Of a stretch of DNA of 64,000 nucleotides, positions 3,722-61,624 are shown piece by piece. The translations under genes and the position numbers were made by a program. Location: NCBI GenBank assembly GCA_964358645.1, contig CAYHPW010000004.1, positions 25,889 through 89,888 of the forward strand. The letters are read 5' to 3'. The stretch is from an uncultured Bacteriovoracaceae bacterium. Its GTDB lineage: Bacteria; Bdellovibrionota; UBA1018. How positions within the stretch are numbered: the stretch's first letter is position 1; every line of letters starts with the position of its first letter. Under the pieces are notes generated by a model, which was not told where the DNA came from, did not search any database, and was given only the letters and a program-made list of their open reading frames with translations.

Positions 3722-3722
3722 G

Positions 3723-6167: not shown

Positions 6168-6183
6168 TAGCGCTTCCTCGAAT

Positions 6184-25154: not shown

Positions 25155-25189
25155 ACATAGCATCCCAGTTATATAATATCCCACTTTGT

Positions 25190-26074: not shown

Positions 26075-26079
26075 GAGAG

Positions 26080-26880: not shown

Positions 26881-27003
26881 TTGCTATGTATAATCTTATG
26901 ACACCTGCGCGTAACGTAAATAGATAAAGTGAAAAAAATCTATAACCAGCTTTCATGTGGTTTCTTGTTTTATTTCAACTAGTTTTAGCGCCTGGCGTCA
27001 TTA

Positions 27004-27019
27004 TGGCCCCACCCTTGCA
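27004..27019 (+). promoter_or_regulatory. Candidate sigma-54 -24/-12 element TGGCCCCACCCTTGCA
   Basis: The GG (27005-6) and GC (27017-18) are separated by exactly the canonical 12 nt (consensus TGGCACG-N4-TTGCA). It lies only about 15 nt upstream of the lipoprotein ATG at 27034, so it could be coincidental or imply a near-leaderless transcript. Confidence 0.25.
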
Positions 27020-27033
27020 CCACCAGACAACAA

Positions 27034-27708: not shown

Positions 27709-27745
27709 TGCTGTAAAGAATTTTTACACTTGTAGGATATAAAAT

Positions 27746-42659: not shown

Positions 42660-43625
42660 TTAATCCCGCTTAAGGACAAACACCCCAGGCAAACGCGAAA
42701 TACGTCCAGTAAGAAGCAAAACTCCAGGGTGACGCACAAGCTCGGCATCAAAAGCAAGTTCCATGGAGTTGGTGTTACTGATACGTTTCACCAACGTCCC
42801 GGAAATTCTCGCGGCCTTGCCGGTTGTTTTTTGAATGCTGAATTTTTGCGACTGTTTTTTACGCTTTACCAGAAGTTCACCGCCAAGAACGGTGGTATTT
42901 TCTATATGTAAAGTCATAACGGCTTCATCACTGACAAGCGCGGTGGATGCGGCAGCTTTTGGCGCAATGAAATATCCCTTCCACGTACCGGAAAAATCCC
43001 TAGAAAAACTTAAGTCTGCTTTATCCTCGGAAGTGGACACCACAGGCAATTTGGCCCGTGGCACCGGGGGCTCTCCCTTAAGTTTTGCAACGATCCAGGA
43101 AGCTTTTTCCTCGGCCATGTATTTTTCTAAAACTTTATTGGCATTTTGATCGCCTATGCGGCGCAGAGCTTCAGCCGCAGTCAGTCTTGTTTGCGGGTCT
43201 TTGTGCCCTAAAAATTTTGAGATAAACTCCACGTCTTGCGTCCCGCGTGATGCGCCTATGCTTCGTATGGCAGCATTACGTATCACATCATCCCCTGTAC
43301 GCTCGGCTTGTTGTTTTATGAATTCCGAAGCTGCTCGGTCATTAAACCAGCCAAGAGCCTCGATCAACCTGACTCTGTGGTAAGTATGCGAAGTATTCTC
43401 ATACAATTTTACAATAATTCCAGGCGCAGACGGGCCGAGCACCCTCCACCACTCCGGCGTGTCCGTCGGGTGGCGCTGAGCAAGCACGTCTCTTATTGAT
43501 TCTTCGATCTCGGAATCAGTTGCGCAAAACACATTTTGCGGGACTGAGGCAACAATCCCTGCTGCTAAAATCACTGCTAATGCAAAAATTCTCATACATG
43601 AAAGCATAGCGCTTTTTCGTTTCAC
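42660..43625 (-). CDS. Secreted HEAT-repeat protein
   Basis: 321 aa. Signal peptide. PBS-lyase/HEAT-like repeats (IRNAAIRSIGASRG..., DPQTRLTAAEALRRIGDQ). ATGA-coupled to the upstream metzincin. Confidence 0.6.
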   Translation of the reverse strand: MKRKSAMLSCMRIFALAVILAAGIVASVPQNVFCATDSEIEESIRDVLAQRHPTDTPEWWRVLGPSAPGIIVKLYENTSHTYHRVRLIEALGWFNDRAASEFIKQQAERTGDDVIRNAAIRSIGASRGTQDVEFISKFLGHKDPQTRLTAAEALRRIGDQNANKVLEKYMAEEKASWIVAKLKGEPPVPRAKLPVVSTSEDKADLSFSRDFSGTWKGYFIAPKAAASTALVSDEAVMTLHIENTTVLGGELLVKRKKQSQKFSIQKTTGKAARISGTLVKRISNTNSMELAFDAELVRHPGVLLLTGRISRLPGVFVLKRD

Positions 43626-45442
43626 TGAACAAAAGGATTATAATTCAATATTAACCCTGATTGCGTTGAAAAAATATTGCCATCACCCGTGCCATTTCCT
43701 TCCTTGAAGTTTTTAGAGGTCCACCACATGAGATGGTTAAACTGGCACTCGGCCTTGGTGTCGCAAAACACCCCTTCCGTTGAATTGTAATCAGTACAGA
43801 CCTCACTGCACTTAAGGCCTGTCACTGGATGAACGTTCGTATCATTCACCCGGCACGACCTCACGGTCCTGTACAAAACCCCACCCACGCTCTGGGTCGC
43901 GGTACAAATCGGTGTATCAAGTACCACATCATGACCAGAATAATCAGACGAGCTGCCCGACTCACTTGGATGATTTAACCCAAGATAATGCCCTATCTCA
44001 TGACCGATGGTGGCGCCCATCTCGTTAAATGCGCTTTCCTGGCTTGTCAGCGGGCACACGGAGCTACCGGAGCAATTTGGGTTAAACGTATCCAACTTGT
44101 CGAAGCTTGAAAATATAAGACCACTTATTTCCGTGCCATTAACCATCGGACCACCAATCGCACCAGCAAGGCCTAGGATGGTGAGGTTGGAATTCAGGTC
44201 AGAGCTATTGATCGTTGAGACGAGGAAAATATTCAGCGCCTTTCCTTCCGTTGAAGACGGCACGAGGGCACTTCCGGTCTTAAACATATTGCCGATGCTG
44301 TTTAAAGAAACATTTGCATATGCATCGCCACCAGACTCGCAAGTCCATTCAAGAACATTGATGCTACCAACTTTTACGCCGCTGGCGGACTGAGACAAAT
44401 AGCTATGCACCATCGAAAGCAATGTATCTAGATTCTGCTGCCCTTTTATCGTGCGTGATGCGGTAATGTTTTTTGAACCAACAAGTATAATGTTCAAGTC
44501 CAAGGCACCGCTCACACTCGCAGAAGTGTCTTGCTTCTTTAGGATAGAAACCTTAAGCCCGGACTCCAGCCCATCCGTGACACTGGAGTAGTCGCTGGCG
44601 AGCAGAACATATTTTGCAGTGTACGTAACTCCATACCGGAGCCTTGCCGGAGAACCTTGAAAGAAATTCGTGTTAAAAGCACATGCCTCTGAAAGCTGCG
44701 TCGGTGGAGTGCTGCCGCCCCCCCAGTTACATGTCGGGAAAGTGGCCGTGCTTGAATAGCCGAAAGCCGCTACCTGGTGCTGCTCCCAATGCGATCGGTC
44801 CGTGAATGCGCTCGGCCAGCTTATCTTGCACTGAGAATTTGCAGTGCATAACCCATTCGTGCAAGTGTAATAACCACTGGCCGCGCAGTCACCGCCGCTA
44901 CCAGCCCTTGCGAGATTTACATACTCGTTAGTGCCGTCCGAGAGATATACAAGCACGGGATAAGCACTTCCTGAAATCGACGTGGATGGAAAATCTGTTA
45001 TCTCTGCAACTAGCGAAAGCGATCCAAGCGGTCCAAGGTCTTCAAGCATAGGGATTGAAATTGAAATCTCCCTGGCCGCGGTGGCGGCCTGCGAAAGCCC
45101 GGTCACCGGGCCACTGGTGGTATAGGTTTCTTTTGTTACCGTTACCGTTCCTTCATGATTTGAGGCACCGGCTCCAGTGACGTTAGGCACCCACGATGTT
45201 CCACTTAGCAGCTCGCACTGGCCGGAGGTGATGTTCGAGGATGTGCCGCTTTCTGATTCCTCTGTCTTTCCGCAGCCAGTGGAAACAACAAGCCCGCACA
45301 TAGCTAATACCAAAAACAACTCCAATGAACCGCACTTGCGAATCCGCAAATTTTGGATAATCCCTTGCCAAACTACATTACCTGCAACAAGACGTGCCAC
45401 TATTCGGTGATTCCCCGAAGCGACAGGACACCAGTCCTGCAC
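43622..45442 (-). CDS. Large extracellular metzincin zinc-metalloprotease lipoprotein
   Basis: 606 aa. Lipobox LVVSTGCGK. C-terminal HEIGHYLGLNH is an exact metzincin HEXXHXXGXXH motif. Long Ser/Thr/Gly-rich N-terminal region. Confidence 0.7.
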   Translation of the reverse strand: MQDWCPVASGNHRIVARLVAGNVVWQGIIQNLRIRKCGSLELFLVLAMCGLVVSTGCGKTEESESGTSSNITSGQCELLSGTSWVPNVTGAGASNHEGTVTVTKETYTTSGPVTGLSQAATAAREISISIPMLEDLGPLGSLSLVAEITDFPSTSISGSAYPVLVYLSDGTNEYVNLARAGSGGDCAASGYYTCTNGLCTANSQCKISWPSAFTDRSHWEQHQVAAFGYSSTATFPTCNWGGGSTPPTQLSEACAFNTNFFQGSPARLRYGVTYTAKYVLLASDYSSVTDGLESGLKVSILKKQDTSASVSGALDLNIILVGSKNITASRTIKGQQNLDTLLSMVHSYLSQSASGVKVGSINVLEWTCESGGDAYANVSLNSIGNMFKTGSALVPSSTEGKALNIFLVSTINSSDLNSNLTILGLAGAIGGPMVNGTEISGLIFSSFDKLDTFNPNCSGSSVCPLTSQESAFNEMGATIGHEIGHYLGLNHPSESGSSSDYSGHDVVLDTPICTATQSVGGVLYRTVRSCRVNDTNVHPVTGLKCSEVCTDYNSTEGVFCDTKAECQFNHLMWWTSKNFKEGNGTGDGNIFSTQSGLILNYNPFVQ

Positions 45443-45977: not shown

Positions 45978-46709
45978 ATGCTTAAAAAAACTGTCCTTGT
46001 AACCATGTTGTTGGCGTTAGCAATATTTTCAGCAAACTGCGGCGGGAAAGTAAGCGATGAGGAAAAGACGGATGCTGCAAACATCGCCGCAGGATTAGCA
46101 GGAGGAATGATTTCAACAACCGACAGCAGCAGCTCGATGCTAAAAGCCAAGGACAATGATGTATCCACCATGGTTAGTGAAATGCGAAATATTGTAGAAG
46201 GAGCCATCTGGCTCGGGCAATTACGACTGGAAAGCCTACATGCAAACAATCTTACAATTCCCACACAAACCTGCAGCGCCTTGAGCAATACAACAACTGG
46301 CACTGCGAGCTGTACAAGCTCGTGCCCGACTGCAAGCAGTTTTAAGCTCGGTTGCTCTATACAAGACGGTAAAACCTCTACATGCAACAAGGTTATCTAT
46401 ACTTTTAACAGCACCTCTTTCTCCGTGACGATGGACTACGATGGAATCTCAGGCACTAGTGAGAGCAATTACACAGGAACACTCGGGGTTTCGCTTACCT
46501 TGAATACAAATGTGACAGGAGGAGTACTGGACGGGAAACTGCTAGAATGCTCAATGAGTTTTTCATTCGATATAGCTTCTTACAAATCAGCCGCTACAAG
46601 ACGTCTTACACCTTCTTGTGATGGTTTTTCATGCAAGTATAACGGAAATGAAATCAGCTGTGACGACATGAAAAACAAGATGATGATTTCAGAGACAAGT
46701 TGCAGCTGA
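45978..46709 (+). CDS. Cys/Ser/Thr-rich lipoprotein, hypothetical
   Basis: 243 aa. RBS GGAGAATATATG. Signal plus lipobox IFSANCGG. Confidence 0.6.
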   Translation: MLKKTVLVTMLLALAIFSANCGGKVSDEEKTDAANIAAGLAGGMISTTDSSSSMLKAKDNDVSTMVSEMRNIVEGAIWLGQLRLESLHANNLTIPTQTCSALSNTTTGTASCTSSCPTASSFKLGCSIQDGKTSTCNKVIYTFNSTSFSVTMDYDGISGTSESNYTGTLGVSLTLNTNVTGGVLDGKLLECSMSFSFDIASYKSAATRRLTPSCDGFSCKYNGNEISCDDMKNKMMISETSCS

Positions 46710-47811
46710 AAATCAGGACAAACATCATCAGACCGATGAATGCTATCAATGCGCCTACACCTATAAATAAAAGCGCAAAATGAGAAGCCGCACCAAAGCT
46801 AAAAGGAAATGGTGAATTATCAAACGTTATATCCCAATGCCCCGCAGGCACTTGAAAAATGCCGGCAACAATCATTGCGACCGACATAAGCGCGATGCCG
46901 GCTGCGAAGATATAAGGCTGAGCGATAACAATAACCTTAAACTTTGGATTCAAAGCTAACCTGTCAGAAATTATGTAATACATAAACGCCATAAATGCCA
47001 AAGACACGCCACCTGCAAGCTGGATGTGCATATGCCCAGACATAGCCAGTGTATAAAGCAGCGTATTATAACCGGCACCCACGAGTGCTAAAACCGCGCT
47101 ACCAGCAACAAAACAAGCACTAAGCATTAAGGATACAAAACAAGGATTTGATAAAAACACCTTCCTGACGGATGAAGTAAACACAAGGCCGTGTAACAGC
47201 AAAGCCGCCGTAGTGGCATACAAACCAAGTGATGAGTTCCATGTCTTCCAAGAATCGCCGAATAGAGGATCACTGAGCAGGTATTGCGCGCCACCAGTTC
47301 CACCACCAAGCGCAAGCAATATAAATGCGATGATGGCGAGCCAACCACGCTTAGGTTCAATGTCAAAAGCTGACTTCCCGAGTAGGTACCAAAAACCAAT
47401 CGCAGCGCACAGCGAGGAGATCATCATCTGGTGCCTAAATCCCAACCACATAAGCCTGTGCCACTCAGGATCGGCTTGCCCGTAAAATATACAAAATTTC
47501 ATGACCACGCCGTGAGCGATGCCAGATAGCATGATAAGCAAGGTGGTAACACCACCAAAAAAAGCCACATCACGCTTTAGGCCTTTTAACCAAAGAAAAT
47601 ATAAAAAAGCCGCATTAAAAAACAAAACAAAATATATCGACGCGCCAGAGCTGTGAATACCAAGCAAGCGATAATACCAGTCAGCCGGCAGCAGATGGAT
47701 TGCTTGCCATCTTGTCAACCCGAGAAGAACGGCAATCGCAGTTGCAAAAACAAAGAGTAAAAAAGCTCCGGCAAAAAGTGACCTTGTGGTTAATTCCCTA
47801 ATCTTCAACAA
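46654..47811 (-). CDS. 10-TM membrane protein with heme-copper-oxidase-subunit-I-like His motifs (divergent or truncated)
   Basis: 385 aa with about 10 predicted TM helices. IAHGVVMKF resembles COX1 helix II (AHAFVMIFF), SGHMHI resembles helix VII HHM, SHFALLF resembles helix X. Lacks the GHPEVY helix-VI signature. Overlaps and follows a CuA subunit gene. Confidence 0.45.
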   Translation of the reverse strand: MLKIRELTTRSLFAGAFLLFVFATAIAVLLGLTRWQAIHLLPADWYYRLLGIHSSGASIYFVLFFNAAFLYFLWLKGLKRDVAFFGGVTTLLIMLSGIAHGVVMKFCIFYGQADPEWHRLMWLGFRHQMMISSLCAAIGFWYLLGKSAFDIEPKRGWLAIIAFILLALGGGTGGAQYLLSDPLFGDSWKTWNSSLGLYATTAALLLHGLVFTSSVRKVFLSNPCFVSLMLSACFVAGSAVLALVGAGYNTLLYTLAMSGHMHIQLAGGVSLAFMAFMYYIISDRLALNPKFKVIVIAQPYIFAAGIALMSVAMIVAGIFQVPAGHWDITFDNSPFPFSFGAASHFALLFIGVGALIAFIGLMMFVLIFSCNLSLKSSSCFSCRHS

Positions 47812-48280
47812 CTATTCTCCCTGTCATCAAATGGTGGCCAAGCCCACAGTACTCGTTACAAAATATCGGCATTCCACCTGCTTCACGCGGTGATATGGTG
47901 ATAATCTGCTCATATCCAGGGATAATCTTAAAGTTAAGACCATCCTTGTAAAAACTTAACCCGTACAGCATGTCAGACGAGGAAATACGAAGACGATAGA
48001 CCCTGCCCTTTTTCATTTTAAAAAGCGGCACGAAACGCCACGAGTGCGCCAAAAGATAATTATCCCCTTCCTCGGCTGGCACCGCTGGGACCACCGGCGC
48101 GCCATTTACGATATCGGTCTTGTTTTTTTCAATCCATTCCATTGCTACTCTGCGGAATTCAGCAGGATCAACCCGCGAGACATCCTTAGGCAATGTCTTT
48201 AGCTCGCTAAGCCCCCAAAGTGTGTAAGAACAAAATGCAGCAAGACACGACATCACAAGGCATATCAACGCTGTACGCAT
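47798..48280 (-). CDS. Cytochrome oxidase subunit II-like CuA cupredoxin with single N-terminal TM
   Basis: 160 aa. LLAHSWRFVP (the HSW CuA His) and CNEYCGLGHHLM (C-x-E-x-C-G-x2-H-x2-M) form a complete binuclear CuA ligand set. Confidence 0.75.
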   Translation of the reverse strand: MRTALICLVMSCLAAFCSYTLWGLSELKTLPKDVSRVDPAEFRRVAMEWIEKNKTDIVNGAPVVPAVPAEEGDNYLLAHSWRFVPLFKMKKGRVYRLRISSSDMLYGLSFYKDGLNFKIIPGYEQIITISPREAGGMPIFCNEYCGLGHHLMTGRIVVED

Positions 48281-49476
48281 CTGGCTTCACCAAAGGAAGA
48301 TTTAAAAGCCTTCGCCGCTATCTCAAGGTGTTGTCGCTCATGCGTAGCCATTACAGTCACGCGGATCCTCGCAGTACCAGTCGGTACCGCTGGCGGCCTG
48401 ACCGGAAGAGCATAAACCCCCATCTCCTCAAGCGCTTCTGCTACCTTGACTGCTGCTCCTGCATCACCGACAACTATCGGGATTATCGGAGTGGGAGGCG
48501 TGCTTGGCAAATTAAAGCTGGCGCTCTTAAGACTTTCCTTTAAGAAATTTACATTATCCGCGAGTTTTAAAACCATGGCAGGCTCTTCAATTAGCATTCG
48601 CAATGATTCCCTTGATGCAGCGATCACAGGCGGCGGGAGAGATGTGGTAAAAACAAAAGGCCGAGCCTTGTTGATTAAAAAATTCTTAGTCATAACATCA
48701 CATGCAACAAAAGCTCCGAAGCTGCCAAAAGCTTTGCTGAAAGTACCCATCTGTACCAGGCCCGGTATCCCGAGTTGCTTGGCATCAGGCACGATCCCGA
48801 AATATTCAAAACTCCCGCGACCAGACTTACCAAGAACCCCTGTCGCGTGAGAATCATCCAGAACCAAAACAGCCTCGTATTTCCTGGCCAGCTCCAAAAG
48901 CTCAGGCAGCGGCGCAACATCACCATCCATGGAAAATACTCCATCAGTGACTATGAATCTTCTCCTTACGCCGATTGACGACGACAGGATATTTTCAGCG
49001 TCCTCGACTGACTTATGTGTAAACCACCGCACCTTGGCACCGGAGGCCCTCGCCCCATCGATAATCGAGGCATGATTCAACTTATCAGAAACAATCAGAT
49101 CCTCTTCGCCGGCCATGGCTGTCAGGATCGCCATATTCGCCACATAGCCAGAGTTAAACAAAAGCGCCGCCTCAGTCCCTTTAAATGCCGCGATTTCGTT
49201 CTCCAATGATTCATGGATCGATAAATTGCCGGACAGCAATCTTGAACCTGTTGATCCGCAGCCTGACCCAACGGCTGCATCACACGTGGCTTTAATAACT
49301 CTTGGATGAGTGCTGATGCCGAGATAGTTATTGGAAGCAAGACACACAAGCCATCTGCCCCGCACAAAAACAGTAGGCCCAGGTAATTCATATGACTTAG
49401 GTAAATGCCGTAGAAGGCCCTGAGTTTCTAACTCCGATAAATCTTTATAAAAGGGACTTTGCTTTTCCGGGCTCAT
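48265..49476 (-). CDS. bioF: 8-amino-7-oxononanoate synthase
   Basis: 403 aa. PLP-dependent alpha-oxoamine synthase with GTFSKAFGSFGAFV lysine motif. Confidence 0.85.
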   Translation of the reverse strand: MSPEKQSPFYKDLSELETQGLLRHLPKSYELPGPTVFVRGRWLVCLASNNYLGISTHPRVIKATCDAAVGSGCGSTGSRLLSGNLSIHESLENEIAAFKGTEAALLFNSGYVANMAILTAMAGEEDLIVSDKLNHASIIDGARASGAKVRWFTHKSVEDAENILSSSIGVRRRFIVTDGVFSMDGDVAPLPELLELARKYEAVLVLDDSHATGVLGKSGRGSFEYFGIVPDAKQLGIPGLVQMGTFSKAFGSFGAFVACDVMTKNFLINKARPFVFTTSLPPPVIAASRESLRMLIEEPAMVLKLADNVNFLKESLKSASFNLPSTPPTPIIPIVVGDAGAAVKVAEALEEMGVYALPVRPPAVPTGTARIRVTVMATHERQHLEIAAKAFKSSFGEARCVQR

Positions 49477-51401: not shown

Positions 51402-51743
51402 CTATTTCGCCATGTCTATCTCAAATGCCGCGGAAATTTTTTCTTTTTCAGAAACTTCCGCTTCCCAATAAATACCAGATTTCTTGCTGAGCGGCTTGTT
51501 AATTACAGACCGGAGCGAATCTTCGGGCAATCTCATCTTTACGCATCCAGTGTCAAAAAAAAGCGCTGGGCCACTGGATTCAGCGACACTCACACATTCA
51601 GCGGCGAAGCAAAAAAATCCTCCCCCGGGGAACAAGACTTGTTCCTCAAGATTTCTACCATTAATCCCACCCTCAATCAAAGACACGCATTCAGCTTTGG
51701 TCACGCGGATCCTCACTGACCCCTTAGAAAGACGAATATTCAT
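51402..51743 (-). CDS. Small hypothetical protein
   Basis: 113 aa between mobA and bioD. No recognizable domain. Confidence 0.4.
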   Translation of the reverse strand: MNIRLSKGSVRIRVTKAECVSLIEGGINGRNLEEQVLFPGGGFFCFAAECVSVAESSGPALFFDTGCVKMRLPEDSLRSVINKPLSKKSGIYWEAEVSEKEKISAAFEIDMAK

Positions 51744-52338
51744 TGCGCCACTCCTCTGGTGTATTTAGATTATTAAAAGCTCTTTTCGATCCCTCCGGGA
51801 CATCAATACAATCAACCCTGATACGACCGAGCAACTCATTGATTGACCTCTGAGAACCTGATCCGCGCAAGCACATGGCTTCAAGCGCGTTAACAACCAC
51901 TGGAGAATTTCTTAGCATGAGCGGCAACTGATAACCGCTAAACATAATCGCCTCGGCATCGCGCTCGTGGCGGCTGGCGTGGACAAGTTTCATTAACAGC
52001 TCGACTTCAAGCAGCGGCATATCAACAGGGACAAACAAAAACCACTCCACAAGAGCGTGCGCAAAACTTGATATCACCGACCACATCCCGCCTATCGGAC
52101 CAATATCGGCTTGTCTGTCGGATACACATAGGTAGCCATCCACATTCCCGCTGACTACGACTTCACCACCAAAAGGCTCGATCACATCAGAGATCACGTC
52201 CGCGACGTGATCGATAAGACGAACACCTTTTGCATGGATTTTTGCATTAATAAGAAGCGTTGCCTTATCCCGTCCCATGCGGGTGGACTTGCCGCCCGCC
52301 ATGATCACGCCCATCACAGGCTTCTGTAACACCGTCAT
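51724..52338 (-). CDS. mobA: Molybdenum cofactor guanylyltransferase
   Basis: MGVIMAGGKSTRMGRDKATL nucleotidyltransferase motif. Start taken at MTVLQKPVMG; the track ORF extends to 52389. Confidence 0.8.
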   Translation of the reverse strand: MTVLQKPVMGVIMAGGKSTRMGRDKATLLINAKIHAKGVRLIDHVADVISDVIEPFGGEVVVSGNVDGYLCVSDRQADIGPIGGMWSVISSFAHALVEWFLFVPVDMPLLEVELLMKLVHASRHERDAEAIMFSGYQLPLMLRNSPVVVNALEAMCLRGSGSQRSINELLGRIRVDCIDVPEGSKRAFNNLNTPEEWRNEYSSF

Positions 52339-52798
52339 AACCTCCCGCCGAACAAAGGGCATGGCCGCGCACCCAGCCGCTATCTCCATCTATGTAAAAT
52401 TCCTTCTTCCAGATTGGCGCGCGGATTTTAATCTCCTCGATTACATACCGTGAAGCTTTGTAGGCTTCATCCCGGTGCGGTGAACTCACACAAATAGCCA
52501 CGCTGATTTCACCGACTTTTAGTTCACCGATCCTATGCAGAACAGCAAGACACAAATCTTGACCGAACCTGGCTCTCGCTTCAGTGGCTATTTCGAGCAA
52601 AATATTTTTTGCAAGCGGGATAAAGGCGTCATACAGCACCGACTTCACGTCCTTGCCCGCATTGTGATCACGCACGACACCAAGGAACAGCACTTCCGCG
52701 CCATGGGAATTCCCTGCACGTGAGTGTCTTGCAACAGACGATATAATTTCGGCTGGATTAATAATTTTTTCGGAAATATCACAAAAACAATTATCCAT
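52265..52798 (-). CDS. moaE: Molybdopterin synthase catalytic subunit
   Basis: VRDHNAGKDV...HRIGELKVGEISVAICVSSPHRDEAYKASRYVIEEIKIRAPIWKKE. Start taken at MDNCFC. Carries an unusually long C-terminal extension that overlaps mobA. Confidence 0.75.
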   Translation of the reverse strand: MDNCFCDISEKIINPAEIISSVARHSRAGNSHGAEVLFLGVVRDHNAGKDVKSVLYDAFIPLAKNILLEIATEARARFGQDLCLAVLHRIGELKVGEISVAICVSSPHRDEAYKASRYVIEEIKIRAPIWKKEFYIDGDSGWVRGHALCSAGGYDGVTEACDGRDHGGRQVHPHGTG

Positions 52799-52800
52799 TT

Positions 52801-53064
52801 TTAGCCTCCGCAGACCGGCGGAATAACGGCCACGGTGCAACTGTCACGGATGATGGCTTCATCGCACAAAATGCTTTTTTCATCAGCAAACGCACTTTCG
52901 GAAAGCAGGCTTCCAAATTCATGCGAATTTTTTTGGAGCTTGGTAAAAAGTTCCTGCCTCAACTGTTTAACTGAAGACCCAGCCTCAAGCTTCAAAACCA
53001 TCCCGCTGCCATATCTCCTGAATGCACCAAAAAATTTAACATTCACGTCAATCATATAAACCAC
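52801..53064 (-). CDS. moaD: Molybdopterin synthase sulfur-carrier subunit
   Basis: 87 aa ubiquitin-like protein ending in Gly-Gly (...VIPPVCGG). Confidence 0.75.
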   Translation of the reverse strand: MVYMIDVNVKFFGAFRRYGSGMVLKLEAGSSVKQLRQELFTKLQKNSHEFGSLLSESAFADEKSILCDEAIIRDSCTVAVIPPVCGG

Positions 53065-54301
53065 TCCTTAGGGGCGCAACCTCAACCAAGACACCCGGAG
53101 GGAACTCGCCACAATCTTCCTTCAACACAACCCATGCGTTGGAATCAAGCATGGGGCTTATCATAAACGACGCTTGTCCCGGCAAAATATCCACGACCAC
53201 ACTGCCATCCTTCATGGCAAGCCTGGCTTTGTAAAATGCCCTAAGCCAGTCTGGTTTTTTAACATTGTTTTTTAAAAAAGCATTAGTAGGCACTTCATCT
53301 TCACAACCTAGAACGGACCTAATGTAAGGTTCCAAAAAAAATCTCAGACCCACTGCGGTGGAAACAGGATTCCCAGGCATGGAGAAAACAACTGCTTGAC
53401 CGCCGTCATCACGTTTAGGCGCGAGTGCGAACAATATCGGCTTACCTGGTCTGATCGCGCATTTATGGAAAAGAACGGTGGCATCGATGCTTCTAAGTGA
53501 ATCAGCTACAAAATCATGATCACCCATCGAAACCGCTCCGGTTGTGATGATAATATCAGCGCCGTCATCCATCATGCGAAACATGATCTCTTTAAACTGC
53601 TCGGGATCATCCTCTACAACGCCGTAATATCTCGCCTCCGCGCCGATTTCTGACAATGCAGCCATGATGAATGGCGCCGTTGAATTGCGAACCATTCCAG
53701 GCTCTAGCTCAGGCACATCATGCGGCACAATTTCCTTGCCCGTTGAAAGTACTCCCACGCGCGGCGGTTGCCTAACCGCTACCTCAGCCACGCCAACGCT
53801 GGCCAAGGCCATGATGTGGTGTGCGCCAAGCCTCGTACCGGCTCTGACGACAATCTGCCCGGGCTTGAAATCCTCGCCTTTTCGCCTTATGTTGTCACCA
53901 ACGCCTGTCTTATTAAGAATATTATCAGGAATTATGATCGTATCTCCTTCAATCAAAACGTCCTCAACTTTTATAACAGAGTTAAAGTAAAATTCCGGAA
54001 CAGGCGCGCCGGTCATGATTTTAACCGCTACTGGCTGGTTCCCAGCGATCGCAGGATCATGATTGATATTTTCACCAGCAGCTATGTAACCGGCCACCAC
54101 GGCTCTTGATGGTTTTGACTCACAGTTGATGGCAAAGCCGTCCATTGCCGAATTATCAAATGCCGGCACATAACATTGGCTGATGACATCCACAGCGCTC
54201 ACGCGTCCCAAGCATTTCTCAAGCGGCAGGGATTCGATTTGCAAAAGACGCCCTATTGCTGCGTCACTGATGATTTTTAAAGCGTCTGGATATCTGATCA
54301 T
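53048..54301 (-). CDS. moeA: Molybdopterin molybdotransferase
   Basis: 417 aa. MoeA N-terminal and MoCF-biosynthesis domains (GDHDFVADSL, GLSMPGNPVSTAV). Confidence 0.85.
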   Translation of the reverse strand: MIRYPDALKIISDAAIGRLLQIESLPLEKCLGRVSAVDVISQCYVPAFDNSAMDGFAINCESKPSRAVVAGYIAAGENINHDPAIAGNQPVAVKIMTGAPVPEFYFNSVIKVEDVLIEGDTIIIPDNILNKTGVGDNIRRKGEDFKPGQIVVRAGTRLGAHHIMALASVGVAEVAVRQPPRVGVLSTGKEIVPHDVPELEPGMVRNSTAPFIMAALSEIGAEARYYGVVEDDPEQFKEIMFRMMDDGADIIITTGAVSMGDHDFVADSLRSIDATVLFHKCAIRPGKPILFALAPKRDDGGQAVVFSMPGNPVSTAVGLRFFLEPYIRSVLGCEDEVPTNAFLKNNVKKPDWLRAFYKARLAMKDGSVVVDILPGQASFMISPMLDSNAWVVLKEDCGEFPPGVLVEVAPLRSGLYD

Positions 54302-55418
54302 TTACACAGATCCTTTCAACAAATTCAAACACGACCCCAGTCAAAAGAACGGCAAGCATGTTGCGCGTAAACAGCACGACTGCAGCTGCCACTAAGAGCT
54401 TGATCCTGCCAAAGCCGCCACGCCAAGTGGGGGCCGCAAGCAGCATGTGGAAGATTCCGGTAGTAATAAGCAGAACGGATGTAAGAACTGCGGGGTATTG
54501 AAATGCAACGTTATCGCCCGCACGGTTTGTGATGTATGCGACATAAGCCATCAGCAAAAGTGTTGAACCAATAATTCCGTTCGCGGCCCAGCTTGTGGCA
54601 CCTCCACGTACATGCGCCGTAACACCGCCGGCGCCATGGCAAAGCGGCAACCCACCAATCAGTGCGGAAAAAATATTTAAACCTCCGATCGATCTGAGCA
54701 GTGCCCTTACTGTCACCCTGCTGGCTGATTGACCGAAGTACCGCTTTGCAACGTCTTTAGTCCCTATAACCGAATTAGCAAGCGTCAACGCCATTTGTGG
54801 AACAAGCAAAGACACTACTAACCATGGCCTTATTTGCTCGGTTTGTGGAATTTGTGCGCCATCATGATTCACGCCTGAAAACACTGCCCATAAAATACCT
54901 GCAGTGGCAATCAATCCAAGCAGCGGGAATGAAGCGAACCTGATAGCAAGACCGGCAATGCCAAGCCATCCCGCGGCGGCTAAACTTAAACTAAGGACAC
55001 CAGCTCCCACACCTTGCATACAAAGAAGAACCCCAAGCGCGAGTTGCAATGAGTGAATCAAGGAGGCTGGCACTTTTTCACTCCACTGGTTAACGGCACC
55101 TAGACTAAGAAGCAGGCAAAACAACCCCAGCATCGCTCCGCTATACCTGACTTCAGCTACTGATGCGCCAACCGCGACAGCAGCGACAGCTACTGATTTA
55201 AGAGGCTGGACTGACATCGGCACGCGGAACACGATCCCAGCCACCCAGTAAGCAACTCCAGCGCTGGCTAAAAGCACCGCGCCGGAAAACCCTGTCTTCA
55301 TCGCGAGCAAGGCGAGAAGCGGGAATAAAACCGCTCCATCAGCGAATGCCCCTAATACATTCCCAAATATTTTATCTCCGCGCATGATGCGCGCCACCGC
55401 GCATAATATGGAAAGCAT
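54264..55418 (-). CDS. Polytopic membrane transporter, putative molybdate/sulfate-permease-like
   Basis: 384 aa with 10 or more TM helices. Location inside the Moco biosynthesis cluster suggests molybdate uptake; the family assignment is tentative. Confidence 0.4.
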
Positions 55419-56328
55419 GCACTAACAAACCACCAAGAATGTCCAGCCCTTCTTGCACCGCCTTAGGGCTTCCAGGCAACGTTACGATAAGCGTCTTTCC
55501 TAAAAGACCGGCCCCACCTCTGCTTAGCCATGATCTATCTGTATGCAAAGCCCCTTTGCTTCTAAGCAGCTCACCGATGCCTGGCACTGGCCTGAGGTTT
55601 AGCTCATGCATGGCCTCAGGAGTAACATCACGCGGGCCAAGCCCGGTTCCTCCTGTAGTCACGATCAGGTCAACGCCTCCACTGGCAAGACTATCTATTG
55701 CATGTTTAATAATTTCTTTGTCATCCGGCAACAGCATTAACTCTACTTCAATGGCACCATGGGCCTTCAGCCAATCGACAAGCTGAGGTCCTGAGATATC
55801 GCTGGCCTCTTTCTTAAAACTGCTATCACTTATGGTGATAGCCGCCGCGCGAATGCCAGCTCCAGCGCTGGAGAGATCTATCTTGATGCTTGACTTCCCG
55901 CCCTCTTTTAACTGCAACCGTATGTCAGATATGGAAAGCGCAGAATCTATGCCCTTCAAAAGGTCATATATACAAAGAAGTGCCGCGCTCACGGCGCAAA
56001 GCGCCTCCATTTCAACTCCTGTCCTTGCTGTAGCCGATGCTTCGCAGGAAACAAGAATGGATTTTTCCTCAACTTTACATTTTAGTCTCACTGAATCCAA
56101 TTGAAGCGGGTGACACATTGGCAACATCGCGGGAGTGTTCTTTGCGGCTATCATCCCGGCGACTTCAGCAATAGCGAGCACATTGCCTTTCGGGACGGTG
56201 CCCGCTCTGACTCTGGCAATAGTCTCGGCCAAAGCGCTGATCCTGCCGCTTGCAACGGCCCTGCGCCTTGTCGGCAGCTTGCCGCCAATGTCCACCATAT
56301 TATAATTTGGCATAATATAACTTGGCAT
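55372..56328 (-). CDS. moaC: Bifunctional MoaC (cyclic pyranopterin monophosphate synthase) and MogA/MoaB-like fusion protein
   Basis: The N-terminal half matches MoaC, with TGVEMEAL identical to E. coli MoaC and the CHPL loop. The C-terminal half carries the MogA/MoaB motif [22 protein letters not shown]. Start set at MPSYIM (56328); the track ORF extends to 56421. Confidence 0.8.
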
Positions 56329-56341
56329 ATCAAAATTTGAA

Positions 56342-57319
56342 TCAGCCGCCGATTGCGGAAAGGCTTCTTGCATTGCCATACTTCTCCTCGTGCAGGAAAT
56401 GTGACTTCGGTTTGCGCTCAATCAAGCTCCTTATCAACTCGACCGCGGCAGGCACGTCTGATTCGCTGCCAAGCAATGGCCGAAGTGGATAATCCGACTC
56501 GCCGAACAGACAAAGCCTTAGGTTGCCTAAACTGTCAACTCTCAAGCGGTTGCAGTCCTTGCAAAAATCCTGGGAATAAGGCGCGATAACCCCTATCCTT
56601 ACCTTGTAATCAGGATGAGCAAACTCAACAGCAGGGCCATCACCTGGCTTTTTTAAAATGCTGAGCCAGCCTTTTTCAGAAAGTATTTTTCGGACACCAT
56701 CACCGGATAAATGGCTTTTTTGGAAAAAAACCTTGTTTGCGCCGGTTCTCATTAATTCAATAAAGCGAATTGAAAGATCCTTATGCCGACCCCACTCCAT
56801 AAAAGAACCGATATCCTCGTCGTTAACTCCTTTAAGCAACACCACATTAACCTTAAGGGACTCGAACCCGGCACTAAGCGCTGCGTCCAAGCCGTTCAAT
56901 ACTCCACTCAACGCATCTTTGCCGGTTATCTCGCGGAACTTGTCATCCTTAAGACTATCAATACTCACATTCAAGGAATGAAGGCCCGCTTCCTTGAGAG
57001 CGAGGACCAGCTTAGACAAACGATGCCCGTTGGTTGTTAGGGCCACTTTTCTTATGCCAGGAACTGACGAAACCACACGGACGATTTCCACGATGTCACG
57101 GCGGACGGTAGGCTCGCCTCCGGTGAGCCTGACCTTCCAAAAACCAAGCTTTGAAAACGCAATGACCAGATTTTTTATTTCTTCTACTGAAAGTGGTGAT
57201 GTACCACTTTTCTTGAAATATCCGTTTGGGAGACAGTAAACGCAGCGGAAATTACATATATCCGTCACGGATAATCTTAAATAATCGAACGATCTTCCAA
57301 GCGGGTCTGTAAGATTCAA
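56342..57319 (-). CDS. moaA: GTP 3',8-cyclase (radical SAM)
   Basis: RSFDYLRLSVTDICNFRCVYC radical-SAM CxxxCxxC and a C-terminal second cluster region. TTG start with the AAAGGGGA RBS, and an in-frame TGA immediately upstream. Confidence 0.85.
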   Translation of the reverse strand: MNLTDPLGRSFDYLRLSVTDICNFRCVYCLPNGYFKKSGTSPLSVEEIKNLVIAFSKLGFWKVRLTGGEPTVRRDIVEIVRVVSSVPGIRKVALTTNGHRLSKLVLALKEAGLHSLNVSIDSLKDDKFREITGKDALSGVLNGLDAALSAGFESLKVNVVLLKGVNDEDIGSFMEWGRHKDLSIRFIELMRTGANKVFFQKSHLSGDGVRKILSEKGWLSILKKPGDGPAVEFAHPDYKVRIGVIAPYSQDFCKDCNRLRVDSLGNLRLCLFGESDYPLRPLLGSESDVPAAVELIRSLIERKPKSHFLHEEKYGNARSLSAIGG

Positions 57320-57709: not shown

Positions 57710-58861
57710 TCATTTTTCTGACCTGGACTTAAGCAGGAATATCCGTGGGACGAACCCCACACTCCAGACAAGCACGGCTAAAACCCAGACCAGACCAGCG
57801 TACATCAGGTGACGCATGTACATTGCTGCTACTAATGGCGCCGTTACTCGCGTAAATGCGGCGACTATTACTAGAATGCCAGTTGCAAGTATAACCTTTG
57901 ACTTATGCTCAATAATCAGATCATAACCGCCGTGAGCAAGCGTCACACGTGATGCTATCATCAGGGTCATTAAGCCAAAACCGGAAACAAACACTATATG
58001 AAACGCATGCATCCCGAAACTTGGCAAAAGCGCATGAGTCCATAACCCAACAACCAGCCCCCATGTGGCCACCCAAAGCCATCTGGCAAGTTGACCTTTT
58101 ATCCTGGGGAAGCGGTAGATCTTCCAACTCGTAACAGCCAACCAGCTTACTGCAATGGCTTTAATCACCCTTCCAAAGGGAATTGACCAGAAGAATTCAA
58201 CAAAAAAACCAGCAATCAATAATGTACATAGAATAAAAGAAACTGCCATAGCCGATCCCTTTTGTTCACCAAACTGCACAACAGGGGGACCCCAGCCAAG
58301 AAGTGCCCTGACCAGCCGGCCACCAATCCCTAAAATAAGAAACAGCATCGTAGCCTGGTTAAGCAACGTACTAGCCGGCCATAAAACAGCGGCCGGTAAC
58401 AAGCCTACATCATATGCAAGCAACATTGCTCCGCCAAAAAGGCCAAAGCCGATTCCAGCACCGACAAAAATAAAATTATCCGGCACTTTCATGGTGCTCG
58501 TAAGGACCCTCCTCGCAAAAAAGACCACGAGGAACGAAAGCGTTAAAACAGCAGCCAGGTGAAAAATCACCGGTGCAACGGCTGCCAGCGCGGGCAAGAC
58601 GACCATGAAAGGACAGAGATTTATTAAAAACGCCGTAACAATCTCAGATGGCCTTGCCGCAACAGTGCCCGTGAACCGCGGTATGGCAGTAAGCAGGAAC
58701 CCGGTCGCGAAATTAAGCAAGAAGCCGCTTATCATAAGCCCTGAGTGCAAAGAGACCGGATAACTTGATCCGTATTGAAGCACAAACCATGGCCAAACCA
58801 GTGCGCCCCAAATTGAGTAAACAAGACCCAGCGGAAAAAATATCTGATAAGGTTGAATCAT
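57710..58861 (-). CDS. NnrS-family heme-copper membrane protein
   Basis: 383 aa with about 12 TM helices. LHSGLMISGFLLNFATGFLLTAIPRFTG matches the NnrS N-terminal signature (H..MLFGF...GFLLTA.P.WTG). Confidence 0.55.
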   Translation of the reverse strand: MIQPYQIFFPLGLVYSIWGALVWPWFVLQYGSSYPVSLHSGLMISGFLLNFATGFLLTAIPRFTGTVAARPSEIVTAFLINLCPFMVVLPALAAVAPVIFHLAAVLTLSFLVVFFARRVLTSTMKVPDNFIFVGAGIGFGLFGGAMLLAYDVGLLPAAVLWPASTLLNQATMLFLILGIGGRLVRALLGWGPPVVQFGEQKGSAMAVSFILCTLLIAGFFVEFFWSIPFGRVIKAIAVSWLAVTSWKIYRFPRIKGQLARWLWVATWGLVVGLWTHALLPSFGMHAFHIVFVSGFGLMTLMIASRVTLAHGGYDLIIEHKSKVILATGILVIVAAFTRVTAPLVAAMYMRHLMYAGLVWVLAVLVWSVGFVPRIFLLKSRSEK

Positions 58862-58928: not shown

Positions 58929-61130
58929 ATGATAGGCACTTCCGCAATCCGCAAGGAAGCACGTGAAAAAGTGACAGGTCGGGCACTTTATATCGACGAT
59001 ATAAAATTCAACGGAATGCTTCATGGCGCTACGGTCAGGAGCAAAATCGCCCGTGGGCACATAAAACAAATCAATTTTAAACCAGGCATGCCATGGGATG
59101 AATTCACTATAGTCACCGCTAAAAACATCACTGGCAAAAATCATGTCGCTCTTATCATGGATGACCAGCCCTTTTTGGCTGAAACAGCGATCAACCATGC
59201 TGAAGAACCAATCCTACTGCTAGCTCACCACGAGAAGGATCTTGTCGAGGAAGCGCGAAACCACATTGATATCGAGATTGAACCAACGACACCTGTATTG
59301 ACAATCGAAGAGGCGCTTCTTTCAAACAAAATAATTAAATCAATACGCGTTGTAAAAGGCGATTTCAACAAGGCACTATCCGAAGCTGACCATATTATAG
59401 ATGGCGAATATACAACAGGTCTGCAAGAAACCCTCTACATCGAAAACCACGGAATCATCGCGGTGGCAGACCCCCAAAAAGGCATCACCGTCTGGGGATC
59501 CATGCAATGTCCATATTATGTTCACAAAGCATTAGTCGGATTGTTCGGCCTACCTAAGGACAAGATACGCGTGATCCAAACTGAAACCGGCGGAGGATTC
59601 GGAGGCAAAGAAGACTACCCGTCCTTGATTGCCGGTCATGCGGCGCTGCTGGCTTGGAAATCCGGCAAGCCGGTCAAAATGATTTACGACCGTTCGGAAG
59701 ACATGGCCGCCACCACAAAGCGCCACCCTTCCCGCACAAGGCACCGCACGGCCTTAACCAAGGATGGCAGGATCATAGGAATGGAAATAGATTTCGTCAT
59801 TGACGGTGGCGCGTACGCCACGGTTTCGCCAGTCGTGCTTTCAAGAGGGACACTTCACGCAACCGGCCCGTACTACTGCCCAAATATCAGCATAACAAGC
59901 AGCGCGGTCAGGACTAACACACCGCCCAATGGCGCATTCCGCGGCTTCGGCGCTCCACAGAGCCTGTTTGCGATAGAACGGCACATGGACAAAATAGCAA
60001 TGAAACTCGGCATTACGCCGGATGAAATACGAAGGCGCAATTTCATCCGCGATGGTGAGACTACCGCGACCGGCCAATTGATCCGCGACCGCGTGGACAT
60101 GGTGAACCTGCTTGAGCGCGCGCTAGAACTGAGCGGATACAGAAACAAGCTTGAATCATTCAAGACCAACAACTTAAAAAACCATATCAAAAAAGGGATA
60201 GGCCTCGCTGCCTTCATGCATGGAGCGGGCTTCACCGGTTCAGGTGAAAAATTCCTAGCCTCGGTCGTGTCTGTCGAGGTGACCCCGGTTGAAGTAGCAG
60301 CCGGAGGAAAAGTTCGCGTACTTGCTTCAAGCACCGAAATAGGACAAGGGACCAATACGATATTTTCGCAGATAGCAGCCGAGGCCTTAGGCATCGGTTT
60401 AGAAGAAATAGAGGTTGTAAGACCGGATACGGCCATTGTGCCAGATAGCGGCCCCACCGTAGCTTCGCGCACATGCATGGTGGTGGGCAAATTAGTGCAA
60501 TCCGCGTGTGAAGCCCTCAAGCAGATGCTGATTCAAGGCGGGTTTCTGCCTGAAAAATACAGCCAAGCCGTGTTCCGCCAAGCATGCGCGAATTATATCG
60601 AAAAATTCGGCAAGCTTAAGGCCTCAAGCCAATACAAACAGCCGTCATTCATAAGCTGGGATGACGAAAGTTACCGCGGTGACGCATATGCCGCGTTCTC
60701 CTGGGCTGTGTATGTGGCGGAAGTAAGTGTAGATACACATACATTCCAAACAACGGTGGACCGCTTCACAGCGCTTCAGGACATCGGTCGCGTGATCAAT
60801 CCAGTGCTGGCGGAAGGCCAGATCCAAGGAGGAATCACGCAAGGGATCGGTTACACTCTATACGAAAACGTCATCCGCAAGAATGGGCGCATGATCAACA
60901 ACCAGCTCTCAAACTACATTATTCCAACTGCCGCTGACGTCCCTGATACCACTGTATTTTTTGAGGAAACTCCATATGAAAACGGCCCTGGTGGCGCCAA
61001 GGGCATAGGTGAACTACCAATGGACGGCCCTGCCCCGGCAATCCTGAACGCCGTTGAAAATGCGACAGGCGTTCACATGACAAGTATCCCACTTATGCCG
61101 GAAAAATTAGCTGAGGCGATGAAAAAATGA
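58929..61130 (+). CDS. Xanthine-dehydrogenase-family molybdopterin-binding large subunit (second Mo-hydroxylase)
   Basis: 733 aa. GGGFGGKED and AFRGFGAPQ motifs, and the EIGQGTNT Moco-binding region. Confidence 0.85.
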   Translation: MIGTSAIRKEAREKVTGRALYIDDIKFNGMLHGATVRSKIARGHIKQINFKPGMPWDEFTIVTAKNITGKNHVALIMDDQPFLAETAINHAEEPILLLAHHEKDLVEEARNHIDIEIEPTTPVLTIEEALLSNKIIKSIRVVKGDFNKALSEADHIIDGEYTTGLQETLYIENHGIIAVADPQKGITVWGSMQCPYYVHKALVGLFGLPKDKIRVIQTETGGGFGGKEDYPSLIAGHAALLAWKSGKPVKMIYDRSEDMAATTKRHPSRTRHRTALTKDGRIIGMEIDFVIDGGAYATVSPVVLSRGTLHATGPYYCPNISITSSAVRTNTPPNGAFRGFGAPQSLFAIERHMDKIAMKLGITPDEIRRRNFIRDGETTATGQLIRDRVDMVNLLERALELSGYRNKLESFKTNNLKNHIKKGIGLAAFMHGAGFTGSGEKFLASVVSVEVTPVEVAAGGKVRVLASSTEIGQGTNTIFSQIAAEALGIGLEEIEVVRPDTAIVPDSGPTVASRTCMVVGKLVQSACEALKQMLIQGGFLPEKYSQAVFRQACANYIEKFGKLKASSQYKQPSFISWDDESYRGDAYAAFSWAVYVAEVSVDTHTFQTTVDRFTALQDIGRVINPVLAEGQIQGGITQGIGYTLYENVIRKNGRMINNQLSNYIIPTAADVPDTTVFFEETPYENGPGGAKGIGELPMDGPAPAILNAVENATGVHMTSIPLMPEKLAEAMKK

Positions 61131-61624
61131 AGCTGACACTTAAGTGCACCATAAACGGCGAACCACATATGCTGACAGCGCATGCGATGGACCGCCTGAT
61201 AGATGTGCTGCGCGAGCAGCTTAATCTCACAGGGACCAAGGAAGGCTGTGGCGAAGGCGAATGCGGCGCCTGTGCCGTGATCCTGGACGGAAAACTGGTT
61301 AATAGCTGTCTTGTGCCCTTCGCCCAACTGGATGGCGCAGAAATAATAACCATAGAGGGGCTGGCCAAGACAGAAAGATTCAACATTATTCAAGATGCTT
61401 TCATTAAAAGTGGCGCCATACAGTGCGGCATGTGTACGCCTGGCATGGCCGTAACTGCTGCAAGCCTGCTTGACCGCGCCACCACCACGCCCGAATCGCT
61501 TACCCACGACGAGATCAAGGCCGCATTCGCCGGTAACCTCTGCCGCTGCACAGGATATACGAAGATATTTGATGCTTTAAAAAGCGCTGCTGTAGTTTAT
61601 AAACAGCAAAAAGGTAGCGAATGA
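61127..61624 (+). CDS. (2Fe-2S)-binding small subunit
   Basis: 165 aa. CGEGECGACAV and CGMCTPGM motifs. Confidence 0.85.
   Translation: MKLTLKCTINGEPHMLTAHAMDRLIDVLREQLNLTGTKEGCGEGECGACAVILDGKLVNSCLVPFAQLDGAEIITIEGLAKTERFNIIQDAFIKSGAIQCGMCTPGMAVTAASLLDRATTTPESLTHDEIKAAFAGNLCRCTGYTKIFDALKSAAVVYKQQKGSE

Follow-up and report, generated by a model that had tools for sequence, protein, structure and literature searches.

What should be made of two genes that are plainly related to the core of a heme-copper enzyme and yet lack much of its active site? The question is raised by a 64,000-nucleotide stretch of DNA (hereafter the window; positions 25,889 to 89,888 of contig CAYHPW010000004.1, assembly GCA_964358645.1) from an uncultured Bacteriovoracaceae bacterium. 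Two overlapping open reading frames (ORFs) on its minus strand encode proteins of 160 and 385 amino acids (aa; Table 1), both of which are annotated by NCBI as ‘hypothetical’ in a metagenome-assembled genome (MAG) labelled as a Bdellovibrionota bacterium. The original prediction, which delimited both ORFs correctly, proposed a COX2-like protein with a complete CuA site next to a reduced COX1-like membrane protein, perhaps as a novel electron-transfer complex. We find that both proteins descend from subunits II and I of an eNOR-type nitric oxide (NO) reductase, and that the pair is a degenerate variant of this type, seen in one organism, and an evolutionary curiosity rather than a new kind of enzyme. 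Judging from its sequence, the pair is probably a lineage-specific and catalytically dead remnant of an eNOR-type operon that would still be made as a membrane heme protein.

Ancestry of the pair

In profile searches, the 385-aa protein matches Pfam COX1 at 28.2 bits, below the cutoff of 34.8, and the 160-aa protein matches TIGR02866 (CoxB) at 34 bits and Pfam COX2 at 16.6 bits, below the cutoff of 22. With phmmer, the larger protein finds hundreds of full-length COX1 proteins at E values of about 1e-45 to 1e-49 and 33-36% identity, and the smaller one finds COX2 relatives at 1e-37 with identities of at most 46%, the best of them being 176-194 aa long. This homology is far beyond chance and, together with the predicted folds, bears out the proposed pairing of a COX2-like with a reduced COX1-like protein. 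The original prediction had also called for profile searches against COX1, NnrS and CopD. COX1 is the only family that Pfam and NCBIfam report for the 385-aa protein, and PADLOC returns nothing, so that NnrS, CopD and other non-oxidase families could be rejected. NnrS and CopD resemble it in being multi-pass membrane proteins of similar size, but neither profile matches it at E values up to 1.

Structural comparisons agree with this placement. The top Foldseek matches of the subunit I model are all subunit I chains of heme-copper oxidases or NO reductases (NOR), with TM-scores of 0.54-0.72, the subunit II model has Thermus ba3 subunit II as its top matches, and the folds of both models resemble those of ba3, cbb3 and NOR subunits. 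By homology and by its multi-helix fold, the 385-aa protein is thus a member of the heme-copper superfamily of subunit I proteins. When it is searched by sequence alone against the PDB, it gives only a spurious match (E 0.59); its full-length relative P0005 matches the B-family structures of Aquifex (7deg, 1.5e-46) and Thermus ba3 (1e-40). The B-family enzymes of Thermus thermophilus (ba3, 1ehk) and Aquifex aeolicus (7deg) are the best relatives of solved structure, both by the sequence of subunit II (E 1e-10 to Thermus ba3 subunit II, its best solved-structure match) and by the folds of both subunits. They share with the pair a subunit II that has a single transmembrane helix, whereas the pair lacks their cross-linked Tyr and complete CuB site and has 10 transmembrane helices rather than 13.

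The closest sequence family for both subunits is eNOR, reportedly the subject of Hemp & Gennis 2008. Complete subunit I relatives in our alignments are 527-594 aa long, with the eNOR type at about 575 aa. They carry GHxSQQ in helix VI; in the alignment with 7deg_A, the cross-link Tyr of ‘GHPVVY’ falls opposite the second Gln of this motif, and a Gln at the position of this Tyr is diagnostic of eNOR subunit I (PMC8756737). The enzyme that was characterised biochemically comes from Rhodothermus marinus, and eNOR is described as an NO reductase that derives from the B-family and has a CuA subunit (Murali et al. 2024; PMC11214002). When species-representative genomes were scanned, at least 587 eNOR-type loci came to light, whose hosts include Myxococcota, Opitutaceae, Gemmatimonadota, Rhodothermales and two Bdellovibrionota. 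Close relatives of our subunit II lie directly upstream of full-length subunit I genes (587-588 aa), and genes for CtaG, a PCuAC-like protein and heme O synthase are found near these intact operons.

The pair shares with eNOR operons the order of subunit II followed by subunit I at short or negative spacing, a subunit II made of one transmembrane helix and a cupredoxin domain with the CNEYCGLGHHLM loop, and, in subunit I, the His residues of helices II, VI, VIII and X along with long identical stretches such as LTRWQAIHLLPADWYYRLL. It differs by lacking, in subunit I, the diagnostic Gln, two of the three non-heme-metal His, an Arg pair, the His of an ‘HNT’ motif and helices III-IV and XIII, so much change that 41% of family-invariant positions are kept, and by having in subunit II a Tyr for the first CuA His and no N-terminal motif. 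No characterised system works like this pair, yet its homology to subunits I and II of eNOR is clear. In three intact eNOR-type operons (L003 4454-4636, L004 589-771 and L005 2-235), we also noticed, just upstream of subunit II, ORFs of 60-77 aa that could be equivalents of subunit IIa, the small third subunit of B-type oxidases; the window has no counterpart, and bioF stands there instead.

Subunit I and its lost metal ligands

Subunit I of the heme-copper oxidases has a 12-helix core built as three four-helix arcs. The His of helix II and the second His of helix X ligate the low-spin heme, the first His of helix X ligates the high-spin heme, the His of helix VI and two His of helix VII ligate CuB or FeB, and an Arg pair in the loop between helices XI and XII binds the heme propionates. 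Three alignments of 21, 30 and 73 sequences agree on what this subunit I has kept and lost, and the family counts given here and in Table 1 refer to 72 family sequences. Kept are helix I, His53 of helix II within the near-identical family segment LTRWQAIHLLPADWYYRLL, the ‘HG’ of helix V (His100), His127 of helix VI, His207 as the family-conserved His of helix VIII, His260-x-His262 of helix X, and helices XI and XII. All three heme axial His are among these residues, along with one of the three non-heme-metal His (His127), which amounts to four of the six conserved histidines of the superfamily (H53, H127, H260 and H262). The original prediction was right to note the His residues of helices II and X and the absence of a GHPEVY-type signature in helix VI, and right that the protein cannot be a standard heme-copper oxidase. 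The helix VII His that it listed as retained is probably His207 of helix VIII; the helix VII pair has become Q176 and Y177, and H127 of helix VI, missing from its list, is kept.

In helix VI, the Gln-Gln found in 71 of 72 family members at His+3 and His+4 is replaced by Met130-Ile131. Ile131 thus occupies the position of the eNOR-defining Gln, which is also where the oxygen reductases of the A, B and C families have their cross-linked Tyr. The Arg pair of the XI-XII loop has been replaced as well, and the His of ‘HNT’, in the loop before helix X, is Tyr in a column that is identical in 71-72 of the relatives. Whole segments are missing in addition to these ligands. The segment with helices III and IV, about 85 residues long, and a loop of 17 residues that joins helices VIII and IX have been deleted in frame, and the C-terminal ~75 residues of the family, including helix XIII, are absent. 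The AlphaFold model (predicted local distance difference test (pLDDT) 71, predicted TM-score 0.78) shows 10 long helices, which agrees with the earlier estimate of about 10 transmembrane segments and falls short of the 12-helix core. Out-of-frame leftovers or a split gene supplying the missing helices were ruled out by a tblastn search of the whole window with six family proteins, which found no fragment of helices III-IV or XIII. Because homology stops at 46711 and no other fragment is present, these losses are clean in-frame deletions rather than the products of frameshifts or of a split gene.

Without a binuclear heme/non-heme-metal centre, the protein would not reduce NO or O2 by the canonical mechanism, and we hold with high confidence that the original catalytic function has been lost. 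One might still imagine that the protein works as a reductase of NO or O2 at a non-canonical site, for instance with a high-spin heme and a metal on His127, Gln176 and Tyr177, or with heme only. Such an enzyme could draw on the retained His127 and proximal His260 and on Tyr177, which occupies a former metal-ligand position, and an NnrS gene does lie upstream on the same strand. Furthermore, several active-site structures of the superfamily are compatible with NO reduction, and gNOR, the first heme-copper family found to replace even one active-site His, swaps it for Asp (PMC11214002). However, no other family of the superfamily has fewer than two of the three metal His, gNOR being the one family to replace any (PMC11214002), and here two of them are gone together with the eNOR Gln, the Arg pair and the ‘HNT’ His. 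The helices of the binuclear site have changed massively, with only 33-43% of their invariant positions kept, and the CuA entry site is perturbed too. We therefore consider a non-canonical reductase highly improbable.

The gNOR and NOD families do offer precedents for a replaced metal His (His to Asp in gNOR) and, in subunit II, for the loss of CuA ligands (PMC11214002). Unlike the present pair, they are conserved families with many members, one defined substitution and the full 12-helix core, whereas this subunit I has lost two His and two helices and no relatives share the changes. A literature search returned no description of a subunit I that lacks two active-site His together with two core helices.

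Subunit II and its CuA site

The model of subunit II consists of one N-terminal transmembrane helix (residues 2-29) and a cupredoxin beta-sandwich (pLDDT 88), which is the architecture of subunit II in eNOR and the B-family. The label ‘minimal’ that was originally attached to this protein does not suit it, as its relatives are 172-194 aa long and Thermus ba3 subunit II is 166-168 aa. Its CuA loop is intact, and the five ligand positions in it (C141, E143, C145, H149 and M152), along with Asp103 and Gly107, are identical to those of all 64 relatives. The remaining ligand is lost. Tyr106 stands in the column of the first CuA His, which is His in 64/64 relatives, in 17/17 database relatives and in Thermus ba3, where we take it to be His114. 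The claim of a complete CuA ligand set aligning with that of COX2 thus fails at one of six residues. It had counted the His of an ‘HSW’ motif as a ligand, but this residue, His79, aligns with Phe86 of ba3 in a non-conserved column (R, Q or M in relatives); Trp81 of the same motif is a common residue of the family. Also missing is the N-terminal ‘WW..LG.DER.W’ motif of the relatives, because the gene begins right at the transmembrane helix, against bioF.

These changes need not have abolished copper binding. In N2O reductase, the CuA site remains dicopper with the equivalent His rotated away and unbound (PMC8179356). By analogy, subunit II may bind copper, and its perturbed cupredoxin domain is possibly still dicopper.

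Divergence from the family

The degree of change in subunit I has no parallel among its relatives. Out of 141 positions that are invariant in 20 relatives, 56 are kept, 56 are changed and 29 are deleted, whereas each of the 20 relatives keeps 96-100% of the invariant positions in a leave-one-out test. Likewise, subunit I keeps 59 of 145 invariants (41%), and the other 71 intact sequences from named genomes all keep at least 96.6%. Subunit II, by comparison, keeps 21 of 26 invariant positions. In intact operons, subunit I is better conserved than subunit II in 88% of pairs. Where the subunit II proteins of two operons are 30-45% identical, their subunit I proteins are at least 48.5% identical, yet the figure for this subunit I is 34-36%. 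Sites that are invariant across many phyla could have changed only after the original constraint had been lifted, and half of them are now changed.

Distances and neighbor-joining trees give the same picture. The terminal branch of subunit I measures 0.775 against a family maximum of 0.227, its distance to every member is at least 1.27 when no two members are more than 0.85 apart, and it roots outside the eNOR-type sequences. Subunit II likewise sits on a long branch (0.80, where the maximum for the family is 0.36), but is nested within the family, next to L003/P0122. This nesting speaks for accelerated change inside the family rather than for a lineage that separated long ago, subject to the unreliability of neighbor-joining in placing long branches.

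Could the pair nevertheless represent a new, deep-branching heme-copper family, a minimal CuB-less diheme subunit with a variant CuA protein that has its own function and is not a degraded eNOR? The distances of subunit I and its rooting outside the family would fit such a lineage, as would the selection on frame and membrane character and the preferential conservation of the low-spin heme side that are described below. However, the nesting of subunit II points elsewhere, near-identical segments such as LTRWQAIHLLPADWYYRLL fit recent descent with acceleration rather than deep divergence, and the outer ends of the pair look cut by the neighbouring genes. Moreover, no second reduced copy was found among 5.8 billion clustered proteins or 1.84 billion representative proteins, the latter searched exhaustively, nor among 185,579 species genomes or JGI metagenome DNA. 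Given these observations, a new family is distinctly improbable. The novel electron-transfer complex of the original prediction likewise receives no comparative support, as the architecture is a singleton, and with its deletions and the loss of about 60% of invariant positions, the pair looks degenerate rather than designed as a minimal complex.

Two candidates for a related gene were examined and rejected. L024 (5905-7528, Rhodothermales MAG JBLHLC010000024.1) had the appearance of a second degenerate member, and is instead a frameshifted gene or an artefact of ORF extraction. The first ~95 residues of its eNOR-type subunit I match the family and the rest is out of frame, either as a pseudogene or through a sequencing error, at a locus that otherwise looks intact. 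L097, an intact eNOR-type gene from the same sample as our pair, is not its paralogue, as a GC content of 0.71 and a tetranucleotide correlation of 0.06 assign it to another organism.

Decay or maintenance

The most serious rival to a remnant that is still made is a functionless pair of decaying pseudogenes, in which the operon would have been trimmed at both flanks after inactivation, and the frames would be open only because its last function was inactivated recently. This would account for the lack of an orthologue of the reduced form, for the loss or deletion of about 60% of invariant positions, for the metal ligands lost from both subunits, and for outer ends that are truncated on both sides and abut neighbouring genes. 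The reading frame of subunit I is difficult to reconcile with such a history. In neutral simulations with 50% of amino acids replaced, a mean of 8.8 stop codons accumulated and the frame stayed open in none of 5,000 runs; even at 30% replacement, only 0.4% stayed open. Drift from four real family genes leads one to expect 7-12 stops at the observed 50% change of formerly invariant sites, and subunit I has 0. There are no frameshifts, all deletions are in frame, and one of them removes exactly a helix pair and so preserves topology. Charged residues in 185 hydrophobic columns number 4, where 9-15 would be expected under drift.

What has been retained is not evenly spread. Of the 45 invariant positions in helices I, II, X, XI and XII, the set that frames the low-spin heme, 30 are kept, against 31 of 78 in the other segments (Fisher p = 0.005, for a partition picked post hoc). 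All three heme axial His are kept, as are the Shine-Dalgarno-like sites and coupled starts of the two genes. Thus, we regard the pseudogene explanation as unlikely, if still the one to be taken most seriously among the rivals, and our own reading is that the genes have been kept open and membrane-like over a long time. From the open frames, the Shine-Dalgarno-like sites, the coupling of overlapping starts and the host-like codons, we infer that both subunits are probably still translated.

The catalytically dead remnant that we consider probable goes back to an eNOR-type operon in which a CuA subunit II preceded a heme subunit I. Subunit I has lost helices III-IV, the VIII-IX loop and helix XIII by clean in-frame deletions, and also two of three non-heme-metal His, the eNOR Gln, the ‘HNT’ His and the propionate Arg pair; subunit II has lost one CuA His, now Tyr, and its N-terminal motif. 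The product would be a 10-helix membrane protein with three heme axial His, in which the low-spin-heme helices were preferentially kept. As these His and helices remain, the low-spin heme at least is most likely still bound. If a role remains, selection on it would be weak and altered, and the protein might simply transfer electrons through heme or bind a ligand, rather than take part in respiration; a residual heme-based role of this sort seems possible.

Several observations weigh against a remnant that is still made and still binds heme, in addition to the uncertain placement of long branches noted above. The architecture is a singleton, known from one organism with no sister copy, and purifying selection is not directly measurable because the reduced form has no such copy. 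The hydropathy of subunit I correlates with that of the family at r = 0.55, which is about what neutral drift at 50% replacement leaves and, on this count, fits a pseudogene no worse. At the 135 positions with a residue seen in no relative, the correlation is r = 0.03. With the propionate Arg pair and the ‘HNT’ His gone, heme may no longer be bound at all. Finally, both outer ends appear to have been trimmed by the neighbouring genes, and the open frame could reflect a long period of altered function followed by recent inactivation.

A more ambitious interpretation would make the pair a functional minimal module maintained by selection, in which a CuB-less 10-helix heme protein is joined to a five-ligand CuA-type cupredoxin. 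The low-spin heme of the eNOR ancestor, and perhaps its high-spin heme, would have been kept for periplasm-facing electron transfer or for binding NO or O2 in sensing or scavenging. We consider this quite unlikely.

The locus and its surroundings

Table 1. Positions in the window of the gene pair, its diagnostic residues and segments, and selected neighbouring genes
Feature	Positions	Strand	Remarks
Subunit II-like gene	47798..48280	-	160 aa, ATG start; from the ORF list
Subunit I-like gene	46654..47811	-	385 aa, TTG start; from the ORF list
Gene junction	47798..47825	-	Last 14 nt of the subunit II gene contain the TTG start of subunit I, which is preceded by GGGAG (Shine-Dalgarno-like)
Tyr106 (subunit II)	47963..47965	-	Codon TAC, at the first CuA His position; ‘DMLYGL’ against ‘DVIHGF’ in Thermus ba3
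CuA loop (subunit II)	47825..47860	-	C141-N-E143-Y-C145-G-L-G-H149-H-L-M152; intact; aligns to ba3 CNQYCGLGHQNM
His53, helix II (subunit I)	47653..47655	-	His in 72/72 family members; inside the highly conserved LTRWQAIHLLPADWYYRLL
III-IV junction, residues 77-81	47569..47583	-	About 85 residues missing in frame; gap at alignment columns about 112-200
Helix VI motif	47419..47433	-	H127-Q-M-M-I131; metal-ligand His kept, His in 72/72
Gln176-Tyr177, helix VII	47281..47286	-	In place of His-His (71/72 and 72/72 in the family)
His260-Met-His262, helix X	47026..47034	-	H-x-H kept (71/72 and 72/72 in the family)
Ala323-Gly324, XI-XII loop	46840..46845	-	In place of invariant Arg-Arg (72/72 at both positions)
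C-terminal tail and stop (subunit I)	46654..46710	-	18-19 non-homologous residues; family homology ends at 46711
bioF (8-amino-7-oxononanoate synthase)	48265..49476	-	TIGR00858, 434 bits; last 16 nt overlap the subunit II start
Convergent 243-aa ORF	45978..46709	+	Cys-rich, lipoprotein-like signal (…SANCGG); downstream boundary of the remnant
113-aa ORF	51402-51743	-	Weak DUF7009 match, 24.8 bits (cutoff 27); between the mobA-like gene and bioD, joining the molybdenum cofactor and biotin blocks
NnrS	57710-58861	-	PF05940, 115 bits; 10 kb upstream of the pair, same strand; heads the gene string

The two ORFs overlap by 14 nucleotides, and this arrangement of the junction fits translational coupling; overlaps of -4 and -14 nucleotides also occur in intact operons of the eNOR-type family. 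A second Shine-Dalgarno-like sequence, GGTGA, lies 5' of the subunit II ATG. On the other side, the convergent 243-aa ORF overlaps the end of subunit I by 56 nucleotides and has no match in Pfam, NCBIfam or PADLOC. Counts of promoter- or terminator-like sequences that would belong to the pair itself are not above those in shuffled controls. The nearest bioF found when sister genomes were searched for synteny is 57% identical.

An origin of the pair in assembly, binning or gene calling deserves consideration, as the source MAG has a low coverage of about 5. However, the identical protein is found in two independent assemblies in ENA, from groundwater of Hainich well H43, as well as in the NCBI MAG. 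Between these assemblies and the window there are 0-2 base differences across 15-20 kb, and because of this agreement the locus is no accident of assembly. The junctions of the in-frame deletions lie within a continuous ORF, and the composition, codon usage and GC content at third codon positions of the pair match those of neighbouring genes. An artefact is therefore hardly credible, and the same neighbour-like codon preference and third-position GC rule out a recent horizontal acquisition. With 0-2 single-nucleotide differences among the window, L001 and L002, these sequences are uninformative for the ratio of nonsynonymous to synonymous change. The sole notable difference between assemblies concerns another gene, at 43622-45442 (minus strand), where positions 43822-43856 comprise 35 nucleotides in the window and 11 in assembly L001. 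This is an in-frame length polymorphism of 24 nucleotides, or 8 codons, in a 606-aa product that is large, secreted-looking and matched only weakly by M43/leptolysin-type metallopeptidases.

As the original prediction described, the pair overlaps bioF and lies downstream of it, with bioD, bioA and genes for molybdenum cofactor synthesis further upstream on the same strand. It forms the end of a long and tightly packed minus-strand string that runs in the order NnrS, moaA, moaC/mog, a MOT1 molybdate transporter, moeA, moaD, moaE, a mobA-like gene, DUF7009, bioD, bioA, bioF, subunit II and subunit I. NnrS proteins are a family of heme/copper membrane proteins tied to the NO stress response, and the string from NnrS to the remnant may be a trace of a former NO-related neighbourhood. 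A tblastn search with family proteins located no other heme-copper oxidase gene in the window. No match to nitrite reductase, N2O reductase or cytochrome c families turned up in the scanned ORFs, a set that covered most, though not all, ORFs of at least 170 aa.

The suggestion that the host is an anaerobe receives an indirect hint from the far end of the window. At 719-21834 (minus strand) there are three genes for BcrAD/BadFG-type ATPases and three for HGD-D proteins, of the benzoyl-CoA reductase/2-hydroxyacyl-CoA dehydratase type, along with thiolases, enoyl-CoA hydratases, an SDR protein, a CoA ligase, a TetR regulator and a molybdoenzyme of the XDH family. This cluster looks like an oxygen-sensitive pathway for the degradation of aromatic compounds or hydroxyacids, which would be unusual for a genome labelled as Bdellovibrionota. 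Together with its beta-oxidation-like genes and two enzymes of the xanthine dehydrogenase family, it suggests, indirectly, an anaerobic or facultative lifestyle.

Molybdenum enzymes are a heavy investment of this window. A full set of molybdenum cofactor genes with a MOT1-type transporter occupies 51724-57319 (minus strand), and further molybdenum genes are found at 58929-63963 (plus strand) and 2723-6233 (minus strand). The cofactor genes are accompanied by the two xanthine dehydrogenase-family enzymes, XdhC and a second MobA-like gene. Elsewhere, five consecutive ORFs of 176-266 aa at 23971-28522 (both strands) have no Pfam match at E <= 0.001, and a TonB_2-domain ORF (25151-26074) lies among them. 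The surrounding region (about 22-32 kb) has a markedly positive AT skew and a lower GC content than the rest of the window.

Implications

As an observation from a single organism, known from its sequence, the pair probably has limited wider significance. Nevertheless, if its proteins are made and bind heme, they would show how far the heme-copper scaffold can shrink and yet be kept, and would provide a natural ‘minimal’ construct for learning which parts of subunit I fold and bind a low-spin heme. Should the idea of a selected minimal module prove true, the superfamily would gain its first demonstrated member without the binuclear centre and two core helices. There is also a practical message for metabolic reconstructions that are based on MAGs, in that a CNEYCGLGHHLM loop or a weak COX1 match does not imply respiratory capacity. 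In addition, the locus documents the dismantling of an NO-reductase-type operon in a poorly sampled groundwater lineage of the Bdellovibrionota.

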